46,080 nucleotides of DNA from Candidatus Moranbacteria bacterium RIFCSPHIGHO2_02_FULL_40_12b (GCA_001784725.1 MFRX01000009.1:22335-68414), one strand, 5' to 3'. Shown: positions 5,427-37,659, counted from the first letter of the stretch. Notes: a model not told the origin generated them from the sequence alone. Program-made: numbers and translations.

Positions 5427-8096
5427 ATGTCCATTTTCAAAAAAATCTTCGGTTCCAATGAAAGGGAAATCGCGAAAATGCGGCCGATCGTGGAGAAAAT
5501 AAATTCACTCGGGCCGGCAATCGCCAGACACTCCGATGAAGAGCTGAAGAATAAGACAACTGAATTTAAAGAATTATTAAAAAATGGCAAGTCGCTGGAT
5601 GAAATACTGCCGGAGGCCTTTGCGGTAGTTCGGGAAGCGGCCGACCGGGTGATAAACGAGCGCCATTTTGACGTTCAGCTTTTAGGCGGGATAATCCTTC
5701 ATCAGGGAAAAATCGCCGAGATGAAAACCGGAGAGGGCAAGACCCTGACTTCGACGCTGGCTTTATATCTCAACGCACTGGAAGGAAAAGGCGCCCATGT
5801 TGTCACTGTCAATGATTATCTGGCTAAAAGGGACTGCAACTGGATGGGCGCGATTTTTCATTTCCTCGGAATTTCCACGGCCTGCATCATCCATGACGCG
5901 TCGTATATTTACGAACCGAAAATTGTTGACAGCGACGAAGTGAGCGTGGAAATGGAAAATCTAAAGCTGGTGAGCAGGAAAGACGCCTATAACGCCGACA
6001 TCACTTACGGCACTAACAATGAATTCGGATTTGATTATCTGCGGGACAATATGGTGCAGGATTTGGGACAAATGAGCCAAAGGGAATTGAATTATGCCAT
6101 TGTTGACGAAGTGGACTCTATTCTCATTGATGAAGCGCGCACCCCACTCATTATTTCCGCGCCGGACACCGAATCAACCAAAATGTATCAAAAATTCGCC
6201 CAGATAATTCCGCGCCTCAAGGAAAAGGACGACTATGAAATTGACGAAAAAATGAAAGCGGTTACGCTCACTGACGATGGAATAAATAAAGTAGAACAGA
6301 TTCTGGGAATGGGTAATTTATATGAGCCGGGAAAGATAAATTATGTTCACCACTTGGAGCAGTCGCTTAAAGCCGAGGTTCTTTTTAAGCGCGACAGGGA
6401 CTATGTCGTGAAGGACGATCAGGTGATTATCGTTGACGATTTCACGGGCCGGCTGATGCAGGGACGGCGCTACAGCGAAGGGCTTCACCAGGCGATTGAA
6501 GCCAAGGAAGGCGTGCAGGTGCAAAGAGAATCAAGAACATTAGCCACTATAACTTTCCAGAATTATTTCCGGATGTACAAGAAACTTTCGGGAATGACCG
6601 GCACGGCGATTACCAGCGCGGAGGAATTTGCCAAAGTGTATAAACTGGATGTTACTGAAATTCCAACCAATAAGCCGATGATAAGAATTAATCACCCCGA
6701 CATGATTTACAAGACGGAAGAAGGAAAGTTCAATGCGATTGTTGAAAGAATAAAAGAAATAAACAAGGCCGGCCAGCCAATCCTGGTCGGAACGATTGCC
6801 ATTGAAAAATCGGAATATTTAAGCGCTTTGCTTTCAAGGGAAGGGGTGAATCACGAAGTTCTTAACGCCAAACAGCATGAAAAAGAAGCGGTGATTGTCG
6901 CTGAAGCCGGGCATAAAAACTCCGTGACAATCGCTACCAATATGGCGGGAAGAGGAACGGATATAAAATTGGGAGAAGGAGTGCGGGAACTAGGCGGACT
7001 TTTTATTTTAGGCACTGAACGGCATGAAGCGCGCCGCATTGACAATCAATTGCGGGGACGCGCCGGACGGCAAGGGGATTCCGGAATGTCGCAATTCTTT
7101 GTTTCCCTTGAAGACGAACTGATGAGGAGATTTGGGGGGGATAAGCTCAAAAATATGATGGATACCCTCGGCCTTCCCGAGGACCAGCCGATCCAGAATA
7201 AAATAATTTCCAAGACCATTGAAAGCGCCCAGTCCAAGATAGAAGGTTTTAATTTTGACATCCGGAAACATGTTCTGGAATACGACGATGTGATGAATAA
7301 GCAAAGGGAAGTGATATACAAAAAAAGGAAGGAAATACTTGGAAAGGAAGATATTAAAAATAATATAACTGATGACGCCAAAGACGAAATGGAAAAAATT
7401 GTCTCGCTTCATTGCATTGACGAAGAAGTCAATTGGGATATTGATTGCGTTTTCAATGAGGCGAATAATATATTTCCAATTAAGGAAGAAGCCAGGAATA
7501 ATTTTGAAACAATCCGCGGCGATAAGTCAAAAAATGAAATTGAGAAAAAAGGCGCGATGCTGGATTATCTGGTGGATCTGATGAAACAGGCCTATAACCA
7601 AAAAGAAGCGGAGATTAGTCCGGAAAATATGAGGCGCGTTGAAAAATTAGTCGCGCTCCAAACGATTGACAATTACTGGATGAATCATTTGGACGAAATC
7701 GATTATATCAGGCAGGGAATAGGGCTCCGCGGTTATGGCCAGAGGGATCCTTTGGTGGAATATAAACGGGAGGCCTTTGATATGTTTTCACACCTGGTCG
7801 CAAATATCCAATCGGCGATAGTGCGGACGATGTTCAGGATTTCAATGGTTCCGGCTGGAACGCAAAAAACGCAGGAGCAGGAAAAAAATATGCAATTCAA
7901 AGGGGCGGATGAAAGCATCGGGCAATTCGGCGGAAAAAATAATATAAAGCCGTCTGAATCTGGCGAAAGTGAAGAAATAAAACAAAAGCCGATTATCAAT
8001 AAAGATAAAGTCGGCCGCAATGATCCCTGTCCGTGCGGAAAAACTGATCCAAATACTGGTAAGTCAATTAAATATAAAAAATGTTGCGGGAAATAA
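5427..8096 (+). CDS. secA: Preprotein translocase ATPase SecA
   Basis: 889 aa. Contains MKTGEGKTL (Walker A), VDEVDSILIDEARTPLIIS, TNMAGRGTDIKLG, and a C-terminal zinc finger CPCG...KKCCG. Confidence 0.97.
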   Translation: MSIFKKIFGSNEREIAKMRPIVEKINSLGPAIARHSDEELKNKTTEFKELLKNGKSLDEILPEAFAVVREAADRVINERHFDVQLLGGIILHQGKIAEMKTGEGKTLTSTLALYLNALEGKGAHVVTVNDYLAKRDCNWMGAIFHFLGISTACIIHDASYIYEPKIVDSDEVSVEMENLKLVSRKDAYNADITYGTNNEFGFDYLRDNMVQDLGQMSQRELNYAIVDEVDSILIDEARTPLIISAPDTESTKMYQKFAQIIPRLKEKDDYEIDEKMKAVTLTDDGINKVEQILGMGNLYEPGKINYVHHLEQSLKAEVLFKRDRDYVVKDDQVIIVDDFTGRLMQGRRYSEGLHQAIEAKEGVQVQRESRTLATITFQNYFRMYKKLSGMTGTAITSAEEFAKVYKLDVTEIPTNKPMIRINHPDMIYKTEEGKFNAIVERIKEINKAGQPILVGTIAIEKSEYLSALLSREGVNHEVLNAKQHEKEAVIVAEAGHKNSVTIATNMAGRGTDIKLGEGVRELGGLFILGTERHEARRIDNQLRGRAGRQGDSGMSQFFVSLEDELMRRFGGDKLKNMMDTLGLPEDQPIQNKIISKTIESAQSKIEGFNFDIRKHVLEYDDVMNKQREVIYKKRKEILGKEDIKNNITDDAKDEMEKIVSLHCIDEEVNWDIDCVFNEANNIFPIKEEARNNFETIRGDKSKNEIEKKGAMLDYLVDLMKQAYNQKEAEISPENMRRVEKLVALQTIDNYWMNHLDEIDYIRQGIGLRGYGQRDPLVEYKREAFDMFSHLVANIQSAIVRTMFRISMVPAGTQKTQEQEKNMQFKGADESIGQFGGKNNIKPSESGESEEIKQKPIINKDKVGRNDPCPCGKTDPNTGKSIKYKKCCGK

Positions 8097-8275: not shown

Positions 8276-8737
8276 ATGGGAAGTAAGAAAATAATGACTC
8301 TTTGCATAATTCATCAGGGAAATAAAATTCTTTTAGGAATGAAGAAAAGGGGTTTTGGAAAAGGACGGTATAATGGATTCGGCGGGAAAGTTCATGACGG
8401 CGAAAGTGTGGAAGAGGCGGCTAAAAGGGAACTAATTGAAGAAGCCGGAATCAGATGTAAAGAGCTGGATTTAATCGGCGTGCTTGAATTTTCGTGGACA
8501 AATAAACCGGAAATTTTGGAAGTGCATATTTTTAAAGCCGAAAAAATTGAGGGCGAACCGACTGAAAGCGAAGAAATGAAACCGGAATGGTTCCATATTG
8601 ATGAAATACCCTTCCATTCCATGTGGTCGGACGATCCCCACTGGTTTCCGCTTTTTTTGGAAAACAAAAAATTCAAAGGTAATTTTGTTTTTGACGATTC
8701 TGATAAGATGGTTCAATATAATTTAGAAGAAATTTAA
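8276..8737 (+). CDS. Nudix hydrolase (MutT/MTH1-like)
   Basis: 153 aa with the Nudix box GGKVHDGESVEEAAKRELIEEAGI. Confidence 0.85.
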   Translation: MGSKKIMTLCIIHQGNKILLGMKKRGFGKGRYNGFGGKVHDGESVEEAAKRELIEEAGIRCKELDLIGVLEFSWTNKPEILEVHIFKAEKIEGEPTESEEMKPEWFHIDEIPFHSMWSDDPHWFPLFLENKKFKGNFVFDDSDKMVQYNLEEI

Positions 8738-8777: not shown

Positions 8778-8800
8778 ATATTATATTTAAAGGTAAGCTT

Positions 8801-8857
8801 GCATTATTCATAATTCTTAATTCCAGCAATATGGTTTCTTTTGAAAAATCCGTCGGG
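8801..8857 (+). repeat. Left direct repeat of the island (attL-like)
   Basis: 57 nt repeated at 12809..12879. The right copy carries an extra 14 nt. The 41-nt exact core is TTAATTCCAGCAATATGGTTTCTTTTGAAAAATCCGTCGGG (8817..8857 = 12839..12879). Confidence 0.9.
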
Positions 8858-8881
8858 ATTGTGGTGTTTTGGTTAATATAA
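8831..8881 (+). pseudogene. Duplicated 5' fragment of the Nudix gene at 12853 (16 codons, then stop)
   Basis: The first nine codons (ATG GTT TCT TTT GAA AAA TCC GTC GGG) are identical to those of the intact gene at 12853. The sequence then diverges and reaches TAA at 8879..8881. Confidence 0.7.
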
Positions 8882-8921
8882 CTAAAAAATGGCTTAAATA
8901 AAGCATAAAGTCGAAACCTTC

Positions 8922-8950
8922 TTGACTTTTTTGTTTTTGCGTGCTAGTTT
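8922..8950 (+). promoter_or_regulatory. Putative sigma70-type promoter of the island's first gene
   Basis: TTGACT, a 17-nt spacer, then TAGTTT. The spacer and -35 closely resemble the promoter at 30546..30574. Confidence 0.45.
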
Positions 8951-9021
8951 GTCAGGTTCCTTATATTTTTAAATTGGAAAGTTCTTTGATTTTATGCGCG
9001 AGGAGGAGGTGAAAATATTTC

Positions 9022-9058
9022 GTGCGGTATTCTAAGGGGCGGGAGTTTCACTTCTGCC
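9022..9058 (+). repeat. Hairpin module U0 (GTGCGGT word plus GGGGCGGGAG/CTTCTGCC hairpin)
   Basis: 8-bp stem 9038..9045 / 9051..9058, including two G-T (G-U) pairs that are only valid on the + strand. Followed by CTGCCA. Lies about 35 nt upstream of the 9094 start. Confidence 0.6.
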
Positions 9059-9093
9059 ACGGAAAATAATCTTGAATTTTTTAGGAGGTAAAA

Positions 9094-9735
9094 ATGGCAC
9101 CAAAAACAGCAACGCTTCCGGAAACGGAAACATCTGAACAGATGAAAATCAATACATATAAGGTAACCTGCAGGGGAATTTCCCCGATTCTCATGAATCC
9201 AGCGACAGAGGAACTGCTCAATCAGCTTGACGGCGGAGCAGGAGCGCGTACTCCAAAAGATATGGTTTCAACTCCGGAGCAGAAAGCTGAGAGGAAAATA
9301 ATCCGGGATGAAAACGGGAATGTCGGCGTGCCGTCCAGTTATTTATTCAGTTGCTTGCGCGAAGCGGGCCGGCGCGTTCCATATGACGCCAAGACGAAGA
9401 TTTCCACTAAAGAAAGCACAATTCTTCCGGGACTGATGTCAATCGTGGAAATTTTCATTCCTTTTATTGATCAAGATGCGAAATGGGAAGTGGACCGGAG
9501 AAGAGGCATGCTTCCCAAAGATGGAACCGCGGTTTGTATCACCCGCCCGCGTTTTAACGAGTGGGCATTTGCAGTGACAATAGAAGTGGATGAAGGACAG
9601 GTTTCGCCTGGAAAAATAAAGGAACTTTTCAAGGTAGCGGGAAGAATGGTCGGCCTTGGGGACTTCCGTCCATCATGCAATGGACAGTTTGGAAGGTTCC
9701 GGGTAGAAAACTGGGAGAAGATAAAAGAAACTTAG
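9094..9735 (+). CDS. RAMP-like protein (Cas5/Cas6/Cas7-type motifs); function unknown
   Basis: 213 aa with the strong RBS taGGAGGtaaaaATG. Motif GVPSSYLFSCLREAGR (aa 78-93) resembles the RAMP P-x-S-S-h-K-G-x-h-R motif. The C-terminal glycine-rich loop is VGLGDFRPSCNGQFGRFRV (aa 186-204). Confidence 0.45.
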   Translation: MAPKTATLPETETSEQMKINTYKVTCRGISPILMNPATEELLNQLDGGAGARTPKDMVSTPEQKAERKIIRDENGNVGVPSSYLFSCLREAGRRVPYDAKTKISTKESTILPGLMSIVEIFIPFIDQDAKWEVDRRRGMLPKDGTAVCITRPRFNEWAFAVTIEVDEGQVSPGKIKELFKVAGRMVGLGDFRPSCNGQFGRFRVENWEKIKET

Positions 9736-9753
9736 TAAAATACCTTTCGTTCT

Positions 9754-9829
9754 GTGCGGTTAAGTTTCGTACTGCCTTCCCCAGCAGGGTTCGGTGGAGT
9801 TCGGAGCAGGGACTCAATGAGTCCCTGCT
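9754..9829 (+). repeat. Hairpin module U1
   Basis: GTGCGGT (9754..9760), AGCAGGGTTCGG (9783..9794), and an 11-bp perfect stem agcagggactc / gagtccctgct (9805..9815 / 9819..9829). Confidence 0.65.
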
Positions 9830-9886
9830 GAAATTACTAATGTACTTAAGAGTTGCAATAAAAACTGTTCTCTACTGTTTAGTTCA

Positions 9887-9940
9887 GTGCGGTAGGGCGC
9901 AGCAGGGTGCGGGGCAGGACAGAAGAATTTCTGTCCTGCC
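9887..9940 (+). repeat. Hairpin module U2
   Basis: GTGCGGT (9887..9893), AGCAGGGTGCGG (9901..9912), and a 12-bp perfect stem ggcaggacagaa / ttctgtcctgcc (9913..9924 / 9929..9940), followed by CTGCCATC. Confidence 0.7.
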
Positions 9941-10030
9941 ATCTCTTTCAGAGATTTTAATAAAATTGAAATTTCTAGAAGGGAGAATTTTTTTCCAATG
10001 AGTTCTTTATAATTTTAAAAGGAGATTGAA

Positions 10031-10240
10031 ATGAGGAAGAAAAACAGAGATAGAAAAGAGAAAGAGATTGTAATAAGAGTATCAGGAGTAGAAAGTTTTG
10101 TTCAAGGCAGCAGTAATAATTTGATTATAGATGTTGAAATGAATAAAGAGAATATCTGGATGGCAAAAGTTGAGTCGGAAATTACTCTAAAAGAAATATT
10201 ATACAGAATATGGCCGAACATCGCGCGCATTGTAAAGTAA
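10031..10240 (+). CDS. Small hypothetical protein (69 aa) inside the island
   Basis: Good RBS aaAAGGAGattgaaATG. Occupies the only AT-rich gap between GC-rich hairpin blocks. No recognisable motif. Confidence 0.5.
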   Translation: MRKKNRDRKEKEIVIRVSGVESFVQGSSNNLIIDVEMNKENIWMAKVESEITLKEILYRIWPNIARIVK

Positions 10241-10241
10241 C

Positions 10242-10343
10242 GTGCGGTGGTGTGTGGCTCGGTCCAGCTAGGAGTTAGTAGCGCAGTGAGCGGTCCGGTC
10301 CGCCAGAGCTTGGGGCAGAGTCACTGATAATTCAAACTCTGCC
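10242..10343 (+). repeat. Hairpin module U3
   Basis: GTGCGGT (10242..10248), then about 65 nt of GC-rich sequence, then stem ggcagagt / actctgcc (10314..10321 / 10336..10343), followed by CTGCCAAATTTT. Confidence 0.6.
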
Positions 10344-10429
10344 AAATTTTCTAAAAATTTTAAACCATTGAAATTTTTGAAAAGTTCTTTGAATCATAGA
10401 CAAGGCAGTGTTTAGTCTTGTCCGGTTGC

Positions 10430-10487
10430 GCGCGGTTCTCGACGGCGCAGTAAAGTTTGGAGCAGGGGATTTATTTGGATTTCCTGC
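10430..10487 (+). repeat. Hairpin module U4
   Basis: GCGCGGT (10430..10436). Stem 10462..10471 / 10478..10487 with G-U pairs valid only on the + strand. Followed by CTGCCAG. Confidence 0.55.
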
Positions 10488-10508
10488 CAGAACGCTTAAC
10501 GCAGATTT

Positions 10509-10586
10509 AGCAGGGTACGGCGGAGCAGCGCGCGGTGTAGTTGGGTTGTGTCGCGCATGGGGCAGGAATTAATTCTAATTCCTGCC
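10509..10586 (+). repeat. Hairpin module U5
   Basis: AGCAGGGTACGG (10509..10520), GCGCGGT (10530..10536), and stem ggcaggaatt(a) / (t)aattcctgcc (10561..10586), followed by CTGCCATCC. Confidence 0.7.
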
Positions 10587-10681
10587 ATCCCTTTCCGAGA
10601 ATTTCATTATTTGGAATTTTCAGAAAGGGAATAAAAAGTGTCTTTGGCACTTTCCCATTTGTCCTTTAAAAAGGAGAAAAA

Positions 10682-12466
10682 ATGAAACATCAGAAATATC
10701 TCGATCTTCTGGAATTTTTTCCGGTTGATCAATATCCAAAGCCATTGAAAAATCAAGTGCTGGCTTTGGAAGCAGCAGAAAAAAATGCATCAACGCTTTT
10801 AGAATTGCCGACTGGTTCAGGTAAAACTGCAATCGGCTACACTTTCTTGAAGGCGTTGAAAAGTTCGAGTAAGTCGCCACTTTTCTACATTGTTCCAAAT
10901 AAGACATTAGTTAATCAAGTGCGTGAACTTCATCCCGATGTTAAGGTTGTTTATGGACGTAATGAATATCTCTGTCCTTATTACAGAGACGGCAATGTGA
11001 CAGCCGATGAATCGCCATGTTCAATGTTGGATTGTCCGCATCGGGTAGATCAGGAAACAGGAGAAACCGAAGCTGGAGGAGTTGAGCCGTGTCCCTATCT
11101 TCAGGCCAAATATGAAGCCAAAAGAGGAGACATAATTGCCTGCACTATGTCTTTTTATCTTTTCACCCATCTTTTTTCCAAAGAATGGGATGAGACGGCC
11201 GGACTAGTGATTGATGAAGTGCATCGGTTGGCAAATGTTTTCCGCAATTCTTTGAGTTATGAGATTACGGATTATTATTTAGACAGGATAATCGAGCTCC
11301 TTTCGGAAATTTCTCCAAACGAAGCCAAGATCATATCAGAATTCAGGCGTAAGATGATGAAAATTATCAAGCGCCGTCCACCCAGAACCGCAACGCTTTT
11401 AAAAGCAGGCGAGGTTGCCGAGCTCTTGAGAGAACTTTACAAAATCGATTCGAAAAAAATGCGGAAAGCCGTCAAGGAAGCGGTTAAGCGAGGTGGCATT
11501 GATGTGGTTGCTCAGCGTGAGGTGCTGAAAAAAACCGAAATGATCACTCGCAACCTGATCCGTTATCTCAAGTCATTGGAATTTTCCTTGCCGACGGCCA
11601 AAAGAAATCCTCTCAACTATACTTACGCTTTTTATGAGAAGGATTCGGATGGAAATGGAAAATCGCAGTATCGCTTGGTAATCAGGGCATATTATGTGGC
11701 TCCACTTATCCAAAAAATATTGCCTGAAAAAACACTGGCTTATTCGGCAACAATCGGCGATCCCCAAATCATCAAATATGAAACCGGGATAGATTTTTCT
11801 TTCTATTCTTTTCCGTCTAACTTTCCGTCAAGAAATACTAAAATTTTTCTATCGACTGACATGCCTAATCTTGCGATGAAGGCCAGAAGAAAGCAGGATC
11901 TTACGCGTTCTTTGCGCAAGGTCGCAAAAGCGGCAAAAATCTTTGCTGATTCCGGCATACGGTCGCTCGTTGTGGTTGTTTCCGAGATGGAAAGGCAGAA
12001 GTTTATGATGTTGGCGAAAGAAGAAGGCGTTGAGGCGATAAGTTATGGCAACGGCGTAAAACCCAGAGTCGCCGCTGAAAAATTCAAGAGTGGTGGGAGC
12101 GATGTTCTCGTGGGCACGGTGTCCAACTATGGCGAGGGTGTGGATCTTCCTAAGAAGATTGCGCAAGTGACATTTTTTCTGCGGCCGGGATATCCCAATC
12201 CGCATGATCCGCTCACGATTTTTGAAGAACGAAGATATGGAAGCGTGCGCTGGAAAATTTGGAACTGGCGGGTGATGATAGAAGCGCTTCAGGTGCGCGG
12301 ACGCAATGTGCGGAGCGCCAAGGATACCGGTGTGACTATCTTCATTTCCCAGCAGTTCGGACGGTTCCTTTATGCCAGTCTTCCGGAGTGGCTCAAGGAA
12401 TCATTTGAGGGCAAATTGACTTGGGATGAATGTATTACTGATGCAAAGACATTGCTGGCAAAATAA
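10682..12466 (+). CDS. XPD/Rad3/DinG-family superfamily-2 helicase with Fe-S cluster domain
   Basis: 594 aa with RBS aaAAGGAGaaaaaATG. Walker A is LELPTGSGKT and the DEAH-type box is VIDEVHRL. Four Cys lie between them (LCPYY, SPCSMLDCPH, EPCPY), as in the XPD 4Fe-4S domain. Also has SATIG, YGEGVDLP and QVRGRNVRS (motifs III, V, VI). Confidence 0.85.
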   Translation: MKHQKYLDLLEFFPVDQYPKPLKNQVLALEAAEKNASTLLELPTGSGKTAIGYTFLKALKSSSKSPLFYIVPNKTLVNQVRELHPDVKVVYGRNEYLCPYYRDGNVTADESPCSMLDCPHRVDQETGETEAGGVEPCPYLQAKYEAKRGDIIACTMSFYLFTHLFSKEWDETAGLVIDEVHRLANVFRNSLSYEITDYYLDRIIELLSEISPNEAKIISEFRRKMMKIIKRRPPRTATLLKAGEVAELLRELYKIDSKKMRKAVKEAVKRGGIDVVAQREVLKKTEMITRNLIRYLKSLEFSLPTAKRNPLNYTYAFYEKDSDGNGKSQYRLVIRAYYVAPLIQKILPEKTLAYSATIGDPQIIKYETGIDFSFYSFPSNFPSRNTKIFLSTDMPNLAMKARRKQDLTRSLRKVAKAAKIFADSGIRSLVVVVSEMERQKFMMLAKEEGVEAISYGNGVKPRVAAEKFKSGGSDVLVGTVSNYGEGVDLPKKIAQVTFFLRPGYPNPHDPLTIFEERRYGSVRWKIWNWRVMIEALQVRGRNVRSAKDTGVTIFISQQFGRFLYASLPEWLKESFEGKLTWDECITDAKTLLAK

Positions 12467-12530
12467 ATACTTGCCAATGTAGTGCCCGTTTATGTAGAGT
12501 ATTGTTACGTATGGCTTAAGTATTGCGCGG

Positions 12531-12556
12531 GACGGGAATTCATTTGAATTCCCGTC
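12531..12556 (+). repeat. Hairpin module U6
   Basis: 11-bp perfect stem gacgggaattc / gaattcccgtc, preceded by GGG and followed by GAAATTTTT. Confidence 0.65.
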
Positions 12557-12626
12557 GAAATTTTTCAGCACAGCTTATGATGTTTTGAATGCTAATGTTT
12601 TGCTGAGTCACGTTCAGTTCAGTATG

Positions 12627-12653
12627 GGACGAGAATTCAAATGAGTTCCAGCC
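12627..12653 (+). repeat. Hairpin module U7 (degenerate copy of U6)
   Basis: gggacgagaattcaaatgagttccagcc aligns to U6 but has several stem mismatches. Confidence 0.4.
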
Positions 12654-12737
12654 ATAAAAATTTTACTGTGCCAGGTCATGTTCGGTATAGTTGGCTCCGG
12701 TGGAGAAGGGCATGGCAGTCAATGGTCTTCAACATGG

Positions 12738-12772
12738 GGCAGTGATTTCAATAAATCTCTGCCATTTTTTTT
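12738..12772 (+). terminator. Hairpin module U8, acting as an intrinsic terminator at the island's right end
   Basis: Stem ggcagtgattt / aaatctctgcc (one T-T mismatch), followed by A and then T8 (12765..12772). Confidence 0.7.
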
Positions 12773-12808
12773 GGAAAATTAGTGTGTTATAATTTAAAAC
12801 ACGCCACC

Positions 12809-12879
12809 GCATTATTTTTGATTCTTAATTCACAATTTTTAATTCCAGCAATATGGTTTCTTTTGAAAAATCCGTCGGG
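12809..12879 (+). repeat. Right direct repeat of the island (attR-like)
   Basis: Matches 8801..8857. Contains the start codon and first 9 codons of the intact Nudix gene. Confidence 0.9.
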
Positions 12880-13317
12880 GCGGTTTTGTTCCGGCGGGTA
12901 AACAGCAAAAATAAATATCTTCTGCTTCATTATAAGTCCGGCCATTGGGATTTTCCCAAAGGGCATCAGGAAAAAGGCGAGAATGACGAAGTAACGCTCC
13001 GAAGGGAAGTAAAAGAAGAAACCGGAATCCAGGACATCAAAATAATTCCGGGATTCAGCAAAAAAATCGGATATTTTTATGTTGCCAAAGGAAAAGAAAG
13101 AAAAAAACGGCTGAAGGTTCAAAGAGGAATAAAAATTAAAAAACAAGTTATCTACTATTTAGCCGAAACGCGGGAAAAAGAAGTGAAAATTTCTTTTGAA
13201 CATGTCGGCTTTCGGTGGCTGGACTATTCCCAGGCGCTCAAGAAAATTACTTTCAAAAATTCAAAAAATGTGCTCATTTTGGCTAATAATTATTTTGCTA
13301 AAATACCGGGGTCTTGA
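12853..13317 (+). CDS. Nudix hydrolase (Ap4A-hydrolase-like)
   Basis: 154 aa with the Nudix box GHQEKGENDEVTLRREVKEETGI, preceded by HWDFPKG. Confidence 0.85.
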   Translation: MVSFEKSVGAVLFRRVNSKNKYLLLHYKSGHWDFPKGHQEKGENDEVTLRREVKEETGIQDIKIIPGFSKKIGYFYVAKGKERKKRLKVQRGIKIKKQVIYYLAETREKEVKISFEHVGFRWLDYSQALKKITFKNSKNVLILANNYFAKIPGS

Positions 13318-13349: not shown

Positions 13350-15056
13350 ATGACTCTAAAAAGAAAACTTCTTCTCAAATTTCTCCTGATAATAGTTCTT
13401 GCATTTGGCGCGGGGCTGGTTTCGTATCCCAATGCGGTAAAAAAAATACCGCCGGTTTATAACGCTCTGAATAAGCTGAAAATAAATCTGGGACTGGATT
13501 TGCAGGGAGGGATTCATCTGGAATACAAAGCCGATTTGAGCAATACCGAAAGTTCTAAAGTGAATGACGCGATGCAAGCGGCGCAGGATGTTATCGAACG
13601 GAGAGTAAACGCTTTTGGGGTGGCCGAGCCGATGATTTACACTACGCGGTCGGGAAGCGAACACCGCCTAATCGTGGAACTGGCGGGCGTCAAAGACATA
13701 GAGAAAGCGAAAGAGATGATAAAAGAGACGCCGTTTTTGGAATTCAAAGAGGAAAAAACTGAAGAGGAAATAAAGGAGACGGAGAAAATATTTGACTCAA
13801 TCAACGAACAAACGAAGAGACAGGCGGAAGAAATATTGCAGAGAGCTTTAAATGGCGAAAATTTTGAAGAGCTGGTGAAAAAATATAGCGAAGATCCCGG
13901 ATCTAAAGACGCGGGCGGGGATTTGGGATTTACGAAAAAAGGTACTTTTGTTCCGGAGTTTGACAAAGTGCTTTTCGAAGGAAATCTGAAAAACGGCAAA
14001 GTTTATCCCGCTTTGGTGGAAACGCAATTTGGCTGGCACATTATAAAATTCATTGACTCCCGCGGGGAGGGAGAAAATAAGGAAGTCCATTCCGCGCATA
14101 TTCTTTTGGCGAAAAGGACAGCCGATATGTATCCTGATTTAAAATATAAATCAACGGGGCTCACAGGAAAAAATTTAAAAAGCGCGAGCGCTGATTTTCA
14201 AGGGCAGGGGCTAACCGAACCGGTTGTTTCCTTGCAATTTGATGGCGAAGGGACGAAACTTTTCGCGGATTTGACTAAAAAGAATGTCGGGAAAACGATT
14301 GCGATTTATCTTGACGGGCAAACAATCAGCGCCCCCAGGGTCAATGAAGAGATTACCAGTGGCAGCGCGGTGATATCAGGTGATTTTACGACTGAAGAAA
14401 CTAAAAACTTGGCCAGGCGGTTGAATGAAGGCGCTTTGCCCGTGCCGTTGGAATTGATTTCACAGCAGAGCGTGGAGGCGTCACTGGGAGAAATATCGCT
14501 TCAAAAAAGTTTAAAAGCCGGCATAATCGGGCTTGTTCTCGTCATTATTTTTATGGTTCTTTACTACCGTTTTCTTGGAGTAATCGCCTCACTCGCGCTT
14601 CTCATATATTCCGCGATTATGATTTCTATTTTCAAATTGTCGTCCGGAACTCCCTGGCAAATTACGCTTACGCTTCCGGGCATCGCGGGATTCGTCCTTT
14701 CCATTGGAATGGCAGTGGACGCCAATATTTTGATTTTTGAGCGCACTAAAGAGGAAATAAGGCGAGGCCGGAATATTTTAAGCGCCATTGACGAGGGATT
14801 CAAACGCGCCTGGACATCAATCCGCGACGGAAATGTTTCTTCTCTTATCACCGCTTTCATTTTAATGATGATGGGTACCGGATTCGTCAAGGGCTTCGCG
14901 GTGACATTAATAGTTGGAGTTCTGGTATCCATGTTTACGGCAGTCGTTATTTCCCGGACGCTGATAAAATTTTTAGTAAGAGAATGGATTTCCAATAAAT
15001 TATATTTAATAGGGGTGAAAAGAAAAGATGTTGCTGACAGTGAGATTAGGAAATAA
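13350..15056 (+). CDS. secD: Protein-export membrane protein SecD with an inserted parvulin-type PPIase domain
   Basis: 568 aa. N-terminal TM segment, LGLDLQGGIHL, C-terminal TM bundle (GIAGFVLSIGMAVDANILIFER). Internal segment FEELVKKYSEDPGSKDAGGDLGF...FGWHIIKF is PpiC/parvulin-like. Confidence 0.9.
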   Translation: MTLKRKLLLKFLLIIVLAFGAGLVSYPNAVKKIPPVYNALNKLKINLGLDLQGGIHLEYKADLSNTESSKVNDAMQAAQDVIERRVNAFGVAEPMIYTTRSGSEHRLIVELAGVKDIEKAKEMIKETPFLEFKEEKTEEEIKETEKIFDSINEQTKRQAEEILQRALNGENFEELVKKYSEDPGSKDAGGDLGFTKKGTFVPEFDKVLFEGNLKNGKVYPALVETQFGWHIIKFIDSRGEGENKEVHSAHILLAKRTADMYPDLKYKSTGLTGKNLKSASADFQGQGLTEPVVSLQFDGEGTKLFADLTKKNVGKTIAIYLDGQTISAPRVNEEITSGSAVISGDFTTEETKNLARRLNEGALPVPLELISQQSVEASLGEISLQKSLKAGIIGLVLVIIFMVLYYRFLGVIASLALLIYSAIMISIFKLSSGTPWQITLTLPGIAGFVLSIGMAVDANILIFERTKEEIRRGRNILSAIDEGFKRAWTSIRDGNVSSLITAFILMMMGTGFVKGFAVTLIVGVLVSMFTAVVISRTLIKFLVREWISNKLYLIGVKRKDVADSEIRK

Positions 15057-35880: not shown

Positions 35881-37659
35881 TTACTTCATAATCTCATAAA
35901 TTTTTCCGTTTGTTTCACTGGATGCGATTTCAGGAGAGCTTATGGAGTCCTGGCCGGACATGTTCGCGATTTTCAGGCGGCTGGCTGAAAGAAAGTATGA
36001 ATTGGCGTATACCAACTGGTATTCTGAATTAAGTTTGTCGTATAAAATTGAGCCGCTGTCCGGAACTGCCAAATAAATTTTATCAAATTTTCGCGCGTTG
36101 ATTTTTTTTAAATCAGAAGGATTGAAAAAGTATACCGCGTTTTTGCCAAAAAGAAAACTCGCCGGTCCGGTTATCATCGACCATCCGTCGCCGCTGGCAA
36201 GCCGGTCGACTAAAATGAGATCATTGCCGGAAAATTGCTGGGAGAATTCCTTGGTCTTCGCCAGAAGATTATCGTTTTCGGAGAAAGCGAGGTATTTCGC
36301 GAAGGAGGGGATATTCAGGATTATCAGAATGATAATTGAACCCGAAAAAATTAATTTTTTCTTTTCTTCCAGCCGGTTATTCAGGAATAAAACCGTGTAG
36401 AAGATAAGAGCCGGAAGAACCGCGAAGACATAGCGGCGGAGCATCCAGGGGTGGTCGGACGAGATATTGGAGTCAATGAGGTAAAGAAAAGCCGGCGCGG
36501 CGATAACGAAAGGAATAATCTCCGAAAACCTTTTCTTTTTGAGAAAATACCCTATTCCTATGATTCCCAAAATTAAGTACTGCAAAATTCCGTAGGCAAA
36601 AAATATTCCGGTGGCGCGGGAAGCGGGATTGAGATATCTTTCCGGGATGCTCCCTCCGCTTTTGGGCAGAAAATCAAATATTTTCAGCGCGGCTTTTCCT
36701 ATTTCCTTGAAAAAGGGAAAGTTGGCAAAAAAATCAATAACTAAAATCACGGCCAGCGCCAAGGCGGGAAATAAAATCCTTTTATATTTTTCAGCCACTA
36801 AGAATTTCCTTGCTTCTTTATTAATAAACAAAATCAAAACAGCCATAAGGAGAAAAGCGAATCCTTCAACGCGGGTAAAGGCGATTAATCCGAACGCGAG
36901 CGCGGCGGAAAAAAAATAAAAATCGTTTTTTTCCTTCAGGAAAACAATGAGTTCCAGTATTCCGATCCAAAGGAGCGCCAGCGCCATATTCTCGCTTAAA
37001 GTGTATTTGAAAAACCACATAAAAGAAAAAGAAGTTGCGGATATTATTAATACAGCCGCTGAAGCGGGGATTTTCAAAAACTGGCGGGAAAGAAAATAAA
37101 AAGCGGAAAAAAAGAGGAACAATAATATGGCATTTGCCATAACAAGTCCGAATAATCCCAGTAAAGAATAAAAAATTCCGAGCCACGCGATATAAACCAG
37201 CGGAAATTGAGTCACAAGGTTTCCTTTAGCGTCATAATAAAATCCCGGAAAATTAAGCGCTTTGCCTGGACGGTATGCCCGAAAAAATTCTTTGCTGGCG
37301 GATGTTTCAAATTCCAATTTATGATTTTGCTCCAGGCGGATTGCCGCTTCGCTTATTGATCCCTGATCGCGGCCGGAAAAAATCGTGGGTGTGACAAAAA
37401 AAGAAAAAATAGCCGTTATTAAAAAAGACGAAAGAAGCGCGCAGCGGAATTCAAAAGAAAGGCGGGAAATTATCTTTTTTCCCGCCATAAAATAAAGCAA
37501 TGATGCCGCCCCCAAGAAAAAATAAGCGGCAAAAAGCGCTTTGTAAAAAATTCCGAAAAGCGCCGAAATAAACCCCAGCCAGCCTAGGACAACCCAGAAA
37601 AGCGCGAAAATTATGAAAATTTTATAATCAAAAGCCGATAGCTTGTTTTTTTTCATCAT
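35881..37659 (-). CDS. Polytopic membrane glycosyltransferase, PMT/ArnT-like (GT39/GT83-type)
   Basis: About 592 aa from MMKKNK, with at least 12 hydrophobic helices and a soluble C-terminal domain. The assignment rests on architecture only. The ORF-track N-terminus (to 37851) reads through the palindromic element and is rejected. Confidence 0.55.
   Translation of the reverse strand: MMKKNKLSAFDYKIFIIFALFWVVLGWLGFISALFGIFYKALFAAYFFLGAASLLYFMAGKKIISRLSFEFRCALLSSFLITAIFSFFVTPTIFSGRDQGSISEAAIRLEQNHKLEFETSASKEFFRAYRPGKALNFPGFYYDAKGNLVTQFPLVYIAWLGIFYSLLGLFGLVMANAILLFLFFSAFYFLSRQFLKIPASAAVLIISATSFSFMWFFKYTLSENMALALLWIGILELIVFLKEKNDFYFFSAALAFGLIAFTRVEGFAFLLMAVLILFINKEARKFLVAEKYKRILFPALALAVILVIDFFANFPFFKEIGKAALKIFDFLPKSGGSIPERYLNPASRATGIFFAYGILQYLILGIIGIGYFLKKKRFSEIIPFVIAAPAFLYLIDSNISSDHPWMLRRYVFAVLPALIFYTVLFLNNRLEEKKKLIFSGSIIILIILNIPSFAKYLAFSENDNLLAKTKEFSQQFSGNDLILVDRLASGDGWSMITGPASFLFGKNAVYFFNPSDLKKINARKFDKIYLAVPDSGSILYDKLNSEYQLVYANSYFLSASRLKIANMSGQDSISSPEIASSETNGKIYEIMK

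Follow-up and report, generated by a model that had tools for sequence, protein, structure and literature searches.

Nine hairpins in a chromosomal island of a Moranbacteria bacterium as very probable 3' tails of guide RNAs in a helicase-associated VIPR system

The systems called Viral Interference Programmable Repeat (VIPR) were described in two 2026 preprints (bioRxiv 10.64898/2026.04.26.720920 and 10.64898/2026.04.26.720927), and according to the available preprint text such a system consists of the Vipr RAMP (a protein with a CRISPR-type RNA-binding fold), a vap gene as accessory, and guide RNAs (vrRNAs) roughly 100 nucleotides (nt) long, each made of 9-16 YNNGG repeats (alternative forms: NNNGG, YNNNG and NNNNG) followed by a structured 3' tail. 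In the available preprint text, one Vipr protomer is assigned to each repeat; double-stranded DNA is read by the variable bases with one base skipped, and the vrRNA is capped by its 3' structure, the end from which the R-loop extends. The same text places vrRNA arrays on both sides of the VIPR genes, reports internal repeat degeneracy for the published vrRNAs, and distinguishes seven types, among which III-V carry nucleases or helicases, with nucleases only in III and V; the tested examples are from phages of E. coli and Pseudomonas. Here, a stretch of 46,080 nt (the window) from Candidatus Moranbacteria bacterium RIFCSPHIGHO2_02_FULL_40_12b (GCA_001784725.1, MFRX01000009.1:22335-68414) was analyzed, in which a sequence-only reading had noticed a family of nine hairpins. 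We consider it highly probable that these hairpins are the 3' tails of nine vrRNAs in a helicase-associated VIPR system of this bacterium, which would comprise vipr (encoding an ancestral Cas7-like RAMP), a DinG/XPD-type iron-sulfur (Fe-S) helicase gene as vap, and nine vrRNA genes located before, between and after the protein genes.

As far as the available preprint text describes VIPR, the locus shares with it a homologous Vipr, a minimal two-gene organization with a DNA-acting accessory gene and no adaptation module, predicted RNAs of about 100 nt with tandem five-base repeats (conserved ends, free middle) and a structured 3' tail, and predicted RNA genes both upstream and downstream of the protein genes. 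It differs from the published description in that the repeats have the form Y-N-N-N-S with three free positions instead of YNNGG, the tail is a plain hairpin whose top varies within the locus whereas that of SUSP1 VIPR is an 'invariable' pseudoknot, the system lies in a chromosomal island of a bacterium of the candidate phyla radiation (CPR) whereas the published examples are in phage, and the accessory gene encodes an Fe-S DinG/XPD helicase. Since nucleases are given only for types III and V, the helicase-carrying type is presumably IV, and the window system probably belongs to it. The system is of a kind already described and not a new one; a hairpin tail with fixed base and free top, a Y-N-N-N-S repeat, and an Fe-S DinG partner in CPR genomes were not found in the preprint text available.

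Type IV-A CRISPR-Cas also combines a Cas7-like RAMP with a DinG-family helicase, lacks a nuclease and Cas1-Cas2, uses a guide RNA with a 3' hairpin, and is carried on mobile DNA. Unlike type IV-A, the window has no CRISPR array, Cas5, Cas6 or Cas8-like subunit, its guides would be periodic five-base tracts, and its helicase retains the four Fe-S cysteines. The repeat hairpins cut by Cas6 or Cas5d in type I and III systems are similar in that they, too, are RNA stem-loops closing the 3' side of a guide and are probably recognized by protein at the stem base. The window hairpins differ from these in that they are accompanied by no Cas6 or Cas5d gene, vary in sequence within the array, and show no sign of being cleaved at the base of the stem. 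Literature searches on Cas7, DinG and CPR returned nothing relevant.

The protein genes of the system are as follows.

9094-9735, + strand: vipr gene, 213 amino acids (aa), RAMP of one domain, Cas7-like in fold, with GLGDFRP...FGRF as its C-terminal motif
10682-12466, + strand: accessory helicase gene, 594 aa, DinG/XPD type, with Pfam Helicase_C_2, DEAD and DEAD_2

The 213-aa protein is a RAMP of the Vipr family. A profile of 24 family members matched PDB chain 36pp_D ('SUSP1 Vipr protein') with an E value of 1e-10 over 186/200 profile positions, and the motif RPxFxxW...AG..GxGDxRP..FGRF (C-terminal, G-loop) was common to the family and 36pp_D. In the AlphaFold (AF2) model (pLDDT 84, pTM 0.78) a Cas7-like fold was predicted, for which the top Foldseek matches were Cas7-family subunits of type VII, III-A, III-B and III-E effectors (Csm3, Cmr; E about 1e-6, TM about 0.5). 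The protein matched phrog_4652, had no match in Pfam, NCBIfam or PADLOC, had a 100% identical counterpart, annotated as hypothetical, in a Candidatus Moranbacteria genome, and had 42 relatives in the protein collection. Judged by sequence and predicted fold, it is a Vipr/Cas7-like backbone subunit and not a Cas6 or Cas5d protein, and neither Pfam/PADLOC searches nor clustering of the open reading frames (ORFs) of 28 loci revealed a Cas6 or Cas5 gene.

The helicase matched PADLOC typeIV_DinG over its full length (E 2.6e-39) and phrog_2488 equally well (E 1.5e-42), and its closest solved structures were XPD/Ta0057. Orthologues encoded beside vipr in related loci were 43-84% identical to it, and Walker A, DEVH and four cysteines (C98, C113, C118 and C137; residues 98-137, window 10973-11092) were invariant in 25 orthologues. 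The conservation of the cysteines suggests that the Fe-S domain is probably functional; the corresponding domain of P. aeruginosa CasDinG is described as vestigial (PMC10450177).

All nine hairpins (U0 to U8 in their order) fold on the + strand at the positions given by the sequence-only reading, with free energies of -9.3 to -22.6 kcal/mol; relative to dinucleotide shuffles, their z-scores are -2.6 to -5.4. They form one family of eight strong members and one decayed copy, with a conserved stem base, GG / R-N-C ... G-N-Y / A, below a freely covarying top. To search for further members, a covariance model (R1) was seeded with 41 aligned hairpins and their flanks, six from the window and the rest from eight related loci, and was run over the whole window with filters off. 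It gave eight matches with E < 1e-3, which all fall within 9026-12771 on the + strand and include two non-seed sites, 9793-9837 and 10302-10351; the ninth unit, at 12616-12661, has decayed and scored E 0.38. By a loose regular-expression scan, the strict form GGGGCAG...CTGCCA was found nowhere else in the window. The confinement of R1 matches to the island therefore indicates that the family is real and, within the window, restricted to the island. The family with a conserved base perceived by the sequence-only reading was in this way borne out together with its details: an ending in CTGCC plus A was present in 7/9 units, U6 carries the compensatory double change GACGGG/CCCGTC, G-U pairs are required in U0 and U4, and a long T run follows U8 only. 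What that reading missed is that each hairpin forms the 3' end of a longer unit, whose 5' part consists of five-base repeats in a fixed register. The nine units, numbered in the order of their hairpins, are listed with their R1 E values.

9018-9059, + strand: vrRNA0, about 4 repeats (9018-9037), tail 9038-9058 and 3' A; in the vipr leader; short or truncated, about 42 nt; E 8.6e-5
9745-9830, + strand: vrRNA1, about 12 repeats (9745-9804), tail 9805-9829; E 1.6e-6, non-seed
9863-9941, + strand: vrRNA2, about 10 repeats (9863-9912), tail 9913-9940 and 3' A; E 1.1e-6
10239-10344, + strand: vrRNA3, about 15 repeats (10239-10313) with a 1-nt register slip, tail 10314-10343 and 3' A; E 9.4e-6, non-seed
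10401-10489, + strand: vrRNA4, about 12 repeats (10401-10460), tail 10461-10488 with G-U pairs and 3' A; E 9.4e-4
10506-10587, + strand: vrRNA5, about 11 repeats (10506-10560), tail 10561-10586 and 3' A; E 1.3e-8
12476-12557, + strand: vrRNA6, about 11 repeats (12476-12530), degenerate at the 5' side, tail 12531-12556 (GACGGG/CCCGTC); E 9.3e-8
12578-12654, + strand: vrRNA7, about 10 clean repeats (12578-12627), decayed tail 12628-12653; E 0.38
12678-12772, + strand: vrRNA8, about 12 repeats (12678-12737) with a register offset of 2, tail 12738-12763, 3' A and T8 run; E 3.2e-9

Outside the island, the sole R1 match with E < 0.01 was a partial one at 37461-37494 (E 0.0075), an ordinary GC hairpin (GGCGGGAAATTATCTTTTTTCCCGCC plus A) with neither GG flank nor repeat tract, which is probably a bidirectional terminator.

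The predicted vrRNAs are about 75-105 nt long except for vrRNA0 (about 42 nt), and eight of the nine tracts contain 9-15 repeats, with about 4 in vrRNA0. When the sequence upstream of each stem was cut into five-base blocks in a register anchored on the GG before the stem, the consensus Y-N-N-N-S was obtained, with conserved ends and a free middle, as in vrRNA1 (TGCGG TTAAG TTTCG TACTG CCTTC CCCAG CAGGG TTCGG TGGAG TTCGG). Among 80 five-base units of the window, position 1 was a pyrimidine in 64/80, versus 26-41 in the other phases (P 2.6e-9), and position 5 was G in 50/80, versus 7-38 (P 5.5e-7). The same pattern was seen in 108 units from non-seed metagenomic loci, in which Y reached 0.85 at position 1 and S 0.87 at position 5, positions 2-4 being nearly uniform with a weak G at 4. 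A period-5 spectral peak of 27.6, versus about 10, was located outside the part covered by R1. Register slips of 1-2 nt occurred in several tracts, and strict YNNGG runs were rare in the helicase-bearing clade. At the closest locus (L040), the tail of vrRNA3 is nearly identical and the tract is unrelated, which fits a conserved scaffold with exchangeable guides.

These phased tracts bear directly on the reading of the region as a decayed type IV-like CRISPR array, in which the hairpins would be diverged repeats, the GC-rich stretches old spacers, and the RAMP and DinG genes the remains of type IV-A. The match of the helicase to typeIV_DinG, the likeness of the RAMP to Cas7, and the spacing of the units at roughly 100 nt in one orientation speak for such an origin. 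However, the supposed spacers show a 5-nt periodicity in register with the hairpin, no constant repeat is present, TRF finds no array, and the spacing ranges from 67 to 190 nt. Moreover, the sequence match of the RAMP family is to Vipr, the helicase has kept all four Fe-S cysteines where P. aeruginosa CasDinG has a domain described as vestigial, and no Cas1, Cas2, Cas5, Cas6 or Cas8 gene was found in 28 loci; as for a Csf effector set (Cas8-like Csf1, Cas7 Csf2, Cas5 Csf3 and Cas6/Csf5), the single RAMP was the only component found, with no other Cas match in Pfam, NCBIfam or PADLOC. The decayed-array explanation is thus largely refuted, and we give it hardly any probability.

The sequence-only reading had further proposed a hairpin recognized by protein, as a Cas6/Cas5d-type substrate, and not a CRISPR repeat. 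In part this held: the hairpins go together with the 213-aa RAMP and are no CRISPR repeats. The specific assignment to Cas6/Cas5d did not hold, as no such gene is present. A repeat processed by Cas6 or Cas5d was rejected as a candidate for the same lack of an endoribonuclease gene and because the stem top differs between copies.

Covariation, for which a check with metagenomic homologues had been suggested, was evaluated on 112 distinct metagenomic matches containing no seed locus, although some of them (e.g., L048) are near-duplicates of a seed locus. Pairing was retained in 96.7% of cells, and 287 double-change cells were observed versus 77 ± 12 in shuffles, none of 500 shuffles reaching as high; the covariation score was 0.76, compared with 0.13-0.16 when the 3' partners were slid. 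Covariation is thus supported statistically. Between loci the stem base is exchanged as matched pairs (GGC..GCC, GAC..GTC, GTC..GAC, AGC..GCT and GCC..GGC), while hardly any variation is seen in the GG that precedes the stem, in C:G as the third pair, or in the A that follows the stem, all of which are probably contacted by protein. A resemblance to tRNA-like minihelices, suggested by the ...CTGCCA end, was rejected: CCA consists of C-C of the stem and the conserved A, and becomes GTC-A, GAC-A or GCT-A elsewhere.

Scans of genome, metagenome and viral collections added 197 loci. A vipr homologue adjoins a helicase orthologue in 32 loci, every taxon-labelled one of which is from Patescibacteria/CPR or unclassified bacteria, and by ORF clustering of 28 non-redundant loci only vipr and the helicase gene are conserved, the other clusters being antisense shadows. 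R1 gave 84 matches in genomic and 119 in metagenomic loci, 203 together, exclusively where the helicase (DinG) gene adjoins vipr or the contig is too short to tell. No match was obtained in 1 Mb of viral contigs carrying vipr alone or in long loci with the 213-aa homologue alone, so that the covarying tail is tied to the combination of vipr and helicase. As a positive control, loci with vipr alone contained canonical YNNGG tracts of 6-42 repeats beside the gene, all on the vipr strand except in L140. REP/BIME-like palindromes were rejected as an identity of the hairpins, and the suspicion of a generic REP-like element raised in the sequence-only reading did not hold: no copies were detected in helicase-less loci, in the 1 Mb of viral loci, or elsewhere in the window, to which the check within this genome was confined.

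Among loci with vipr alone, which are proteobacterial or viral, long or numerous YNNGG tracts occur in L155 (3101-3325), L036/L183 (350-2013), L160 (3134-4299) and L176 (3375-4984), with extremes of 42 repeats in one run or 14 consecutive tracts, all on the vipr strand. Two phage records with distant vipr homologues have no adjoining helicase gene and no informative annotation.

Of the 203 matches, 197 lie on the vipr strand, and G-T pairs outnumber A-C mismatches by 46 to 5, a count to be read with the slight bias of R1 itself toward G-U. The excess of G-T over A-C therefore favors RNA read from the + strand, in agreement with the earlier claim that the hairpins are sense-strand elements tied to the island genes. 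The six exceptions are confined to L074 (2564-3315, - strand) and L080 (856-1177, - strand), where the hairpins stand downstream of a divergent helicase gene and on the helicase strand; from this layout, the helicase gene seems to be a travelling companion of the arrays no less than vipr is.

The same strand data weigh on the idea that the hairpins act at the DNA level, as cruciforms or single-strand hairpins for DinG loading, replication or island recombination in the manner of attC or REP elements. This idea draws on the direct repeat that flanks the island, which looks inserted, on the 5'-3' DNA helicase encoded beside the hairpins, and on attC sites, which likewise have a conserved base and a variable top. 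On the other hand, no integrase or transposase is present, the copies are strongly asymmetric between strands (143 on + versus 6 on -), the 46:5 ratio is that expected for RNA or for at most one DNA strand, no hairpins of the family occur in the remainder of the window, and the phased repeats link the hairpins to proteins of a family for which RNA binding has been shown. A DNA-level function is accordingly judged very improbable. attC-like sites were also considered as such and rejected.

In Doudnabacteria, locus L008 has two arrays (6740-7860 and 9760-10900), each of at least a dozen units, with very small tails (8-bp stem with a GNRA-like loop, GGGGCAGARR-GAAA-YYTCTGCCA). Both arrays close with an identical strong terminator, GGCGATAATTCAGCAATTGAATTATCGCC plus a T run, and one vrRNA is duplicated (10027 and 10620).

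A further explanation holds that the hairpins are mainly terminators or attenuators, or RNA-stabilizing stem-loops of the island genes, with no guide role. It can point to the T8 run after U8, to U2 and U6, which pass a simple terminator scan, to L006 and L059, where nearly every hairpin is then followed by ATTTTTTA, and to the position of U0 in the vipr leader. Against it, most copies have no U tract, as the sequence-only reading had already argued, at least 12 tandem copies occur without an intervening gene in L008, L009 and L059, neither the unchanging GG, C:G and A nor the phased upstream repeats belong to the features of terminators, and terminator-like sites in the region are as numerous as in shuffles. 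As the main function of the hairpins, with no guide role, termination or stabilization is very unlikely. The roles of guide tail and terminator are compatible, however; the tail may also stop transcription, and the T8 run after vrRNA8 probably terminates the array.

If the hairpins are vrRNA tails, as we prefer, the guide part of each vrRNA would be the five-base tract upstream of the hairpin. By analogy with the SUSP1 and P. fulva systems, one Vipr protomer would bind each five-base repeat to form a helical filament on the RNA, and the variable bases would read a gapped DNA target. The 3' hairpin would cap the RNA, set the repeat register, and mark the end at which the filament and the R-loop start growing, while the stem top would drift with compensatory changes because it only has to pair. 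The helicase would presumably be brought to the target once this is bound, and would unwind or clear it, in the way that CasDinG is recruited in type IV-A CRISPR.

Several points weigh against the assignment to VIPR. The repeats are far more degenerate than canonical YNNGG and several tracts shift register; the tail of the SUSP1 clade is an invariable pseudoknot in the preprint text available, whereas that of the window is a plain hairpin with variable top; and transcription, RNA ends and Vipr binding are all inferred. The available preprint text is silent on which type has the helicase and on the inclusion of CPR loci, and a supplementary file of the VIPR paper mentions neither helicases nor CPR taxa. 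Targets were not found for three guides (1-nt-skip rule) and vrRNA1 (contiguous-triplet rule) in exact gapped scans of IMG/VR, and 113 guides searched by five rules with mismatches tolerated in 2 Mb of local sequence gave no outliers above background. Contiguous matches of the tracts elsewhere in the window were also lacking, so that no self-target was seen, and gapped searches of the window and 199 loci with skips of 0-3 returned only a trivial self-match at skip 3.

Degeneracy and register shifts together suggest that the reading rule may differ in the helicase-bearing clade, and three free positions per repeat could be read otherwise than by the two-base, one-skip code given in the available preprint text. 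We therefore entertain, as a tentative and rather doubtful extension, that the CPR clade is a distinct working VIPR variant with an altered reading rule, a minimal hairpin cap, and a CasDinG-related Fe-S helicase as effector. In such a variant it would be the GG / C:G / A base, and not a pseudoknot, that fixes the register and from which the filament starts, and the loci would be a living link between VIPR and type IV CRISPR-Cas. Apart from this extension, the window locus and its roughly 30 relatives would place VIPR logic, coupled to a helicase, in ultra-small CPR bacteria. The approximately 200 aligned tails amount to a natural mutagenesis map of the presumed RNA cap, in which GG, one C:G and the 3' A are fixed and the rest only pairs, and they indicate the bases to mutate and the minimum size of a synthetic tail. 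The locus would also allow a direct test of whether VIPR helicases act like CasDinG.

The host, a Candidatus Moranbacteria bacterium of the CPR, carries the system in its chromosome, on a small island that looks inserted. The island spans about 8869-12808 (approximately 4 kb) and contains all nine hairpins on its + strand. Within 8800-13000, three + strand ORFs (213, 69 and 594 aa) were found with long non-coding stretches in between. The remaining features are listed below.

8806-8868, no strand assigned: left copy of the flanking direct repeat, in which the Nudix-gene promoter region and 5' end recur in truncated form
12828-12890, no strand assigned: right copy of the flanking direct repeat, overlapping the start of the intact Nudix gene 12853-13317
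10031-10240, + strand: ORF of 69 aa with a good ribosome-binding site, Lys/Glu-rich, between two vrRNA sub-arrays; status uncertain
9942-9994, + strand: AT-rich long hairpin (9942-9984) and T run closing the first sub-array
10345-10386 and 10588-10630: further copies of the 9942 element

The two flanking copies (63 nt) are 89% identical, and 96% identical over 52 nt. Their sequence is that found upstream of the Nudix gene at 12853-13317 together with the first codons of this gene, and the approximately 4 kb therefore look inserted into the 5' end of that gene, whose truncated remnant left of the island reads MVSFEKSVGIVVFWLI up to a stop. No integrase or transposase was found at the island, either by family searches of the window or by ORF clustering of 28 loci. 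Tandem Nudix hydrolase genes (8276-8737 and 12853-13317; 153 and 154 aa) bracket the island, and the pair with the island has secA (5427-8096) on one side and, on the other, a fusion of a secD-type gene with a PPIase domain (13350-15056). Most related loci are without flanking repeats; those of L048 (5830-5884 and 11168-11222) and L040 (about 5611-5640 and 9373-9400) are quite different in sequence from the repeats of the window.

For the 69-aa ORF, at whose stop codon vrRNA3 begins, no homologue was found in 199 related loci and no family match in Pfam, NCBIfam or PADLOC; it may be a lineage-specific small accessory protein or no gene at all. Sites returned by a sigma-70 promoter scan were no commoner than in shuffles. 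A search of the whole window with Rfam at gathering thresholds gave only two tRNAs, away from the island, and a search of the island by E-value gave three sub-threshold matches (E 0.06-0.8), which were taken as chance.

The AT-rich hairpin (18-20 bp) comes after the last tail of each sub-array, just ahead of the next gene or array, with arms such as TCTCTTTCAGAGATTTTAAT...ATTGAAATTTCTAGAAGGGA and TCCCTTTCCGAGAATTTCA...TGGAATTTTCAGAAAGGGA. Possible roles are termination, processing, or regulation of helicase expression. L040 retains the copy that precedes the helicase gene (7333-7375; z -7.0).

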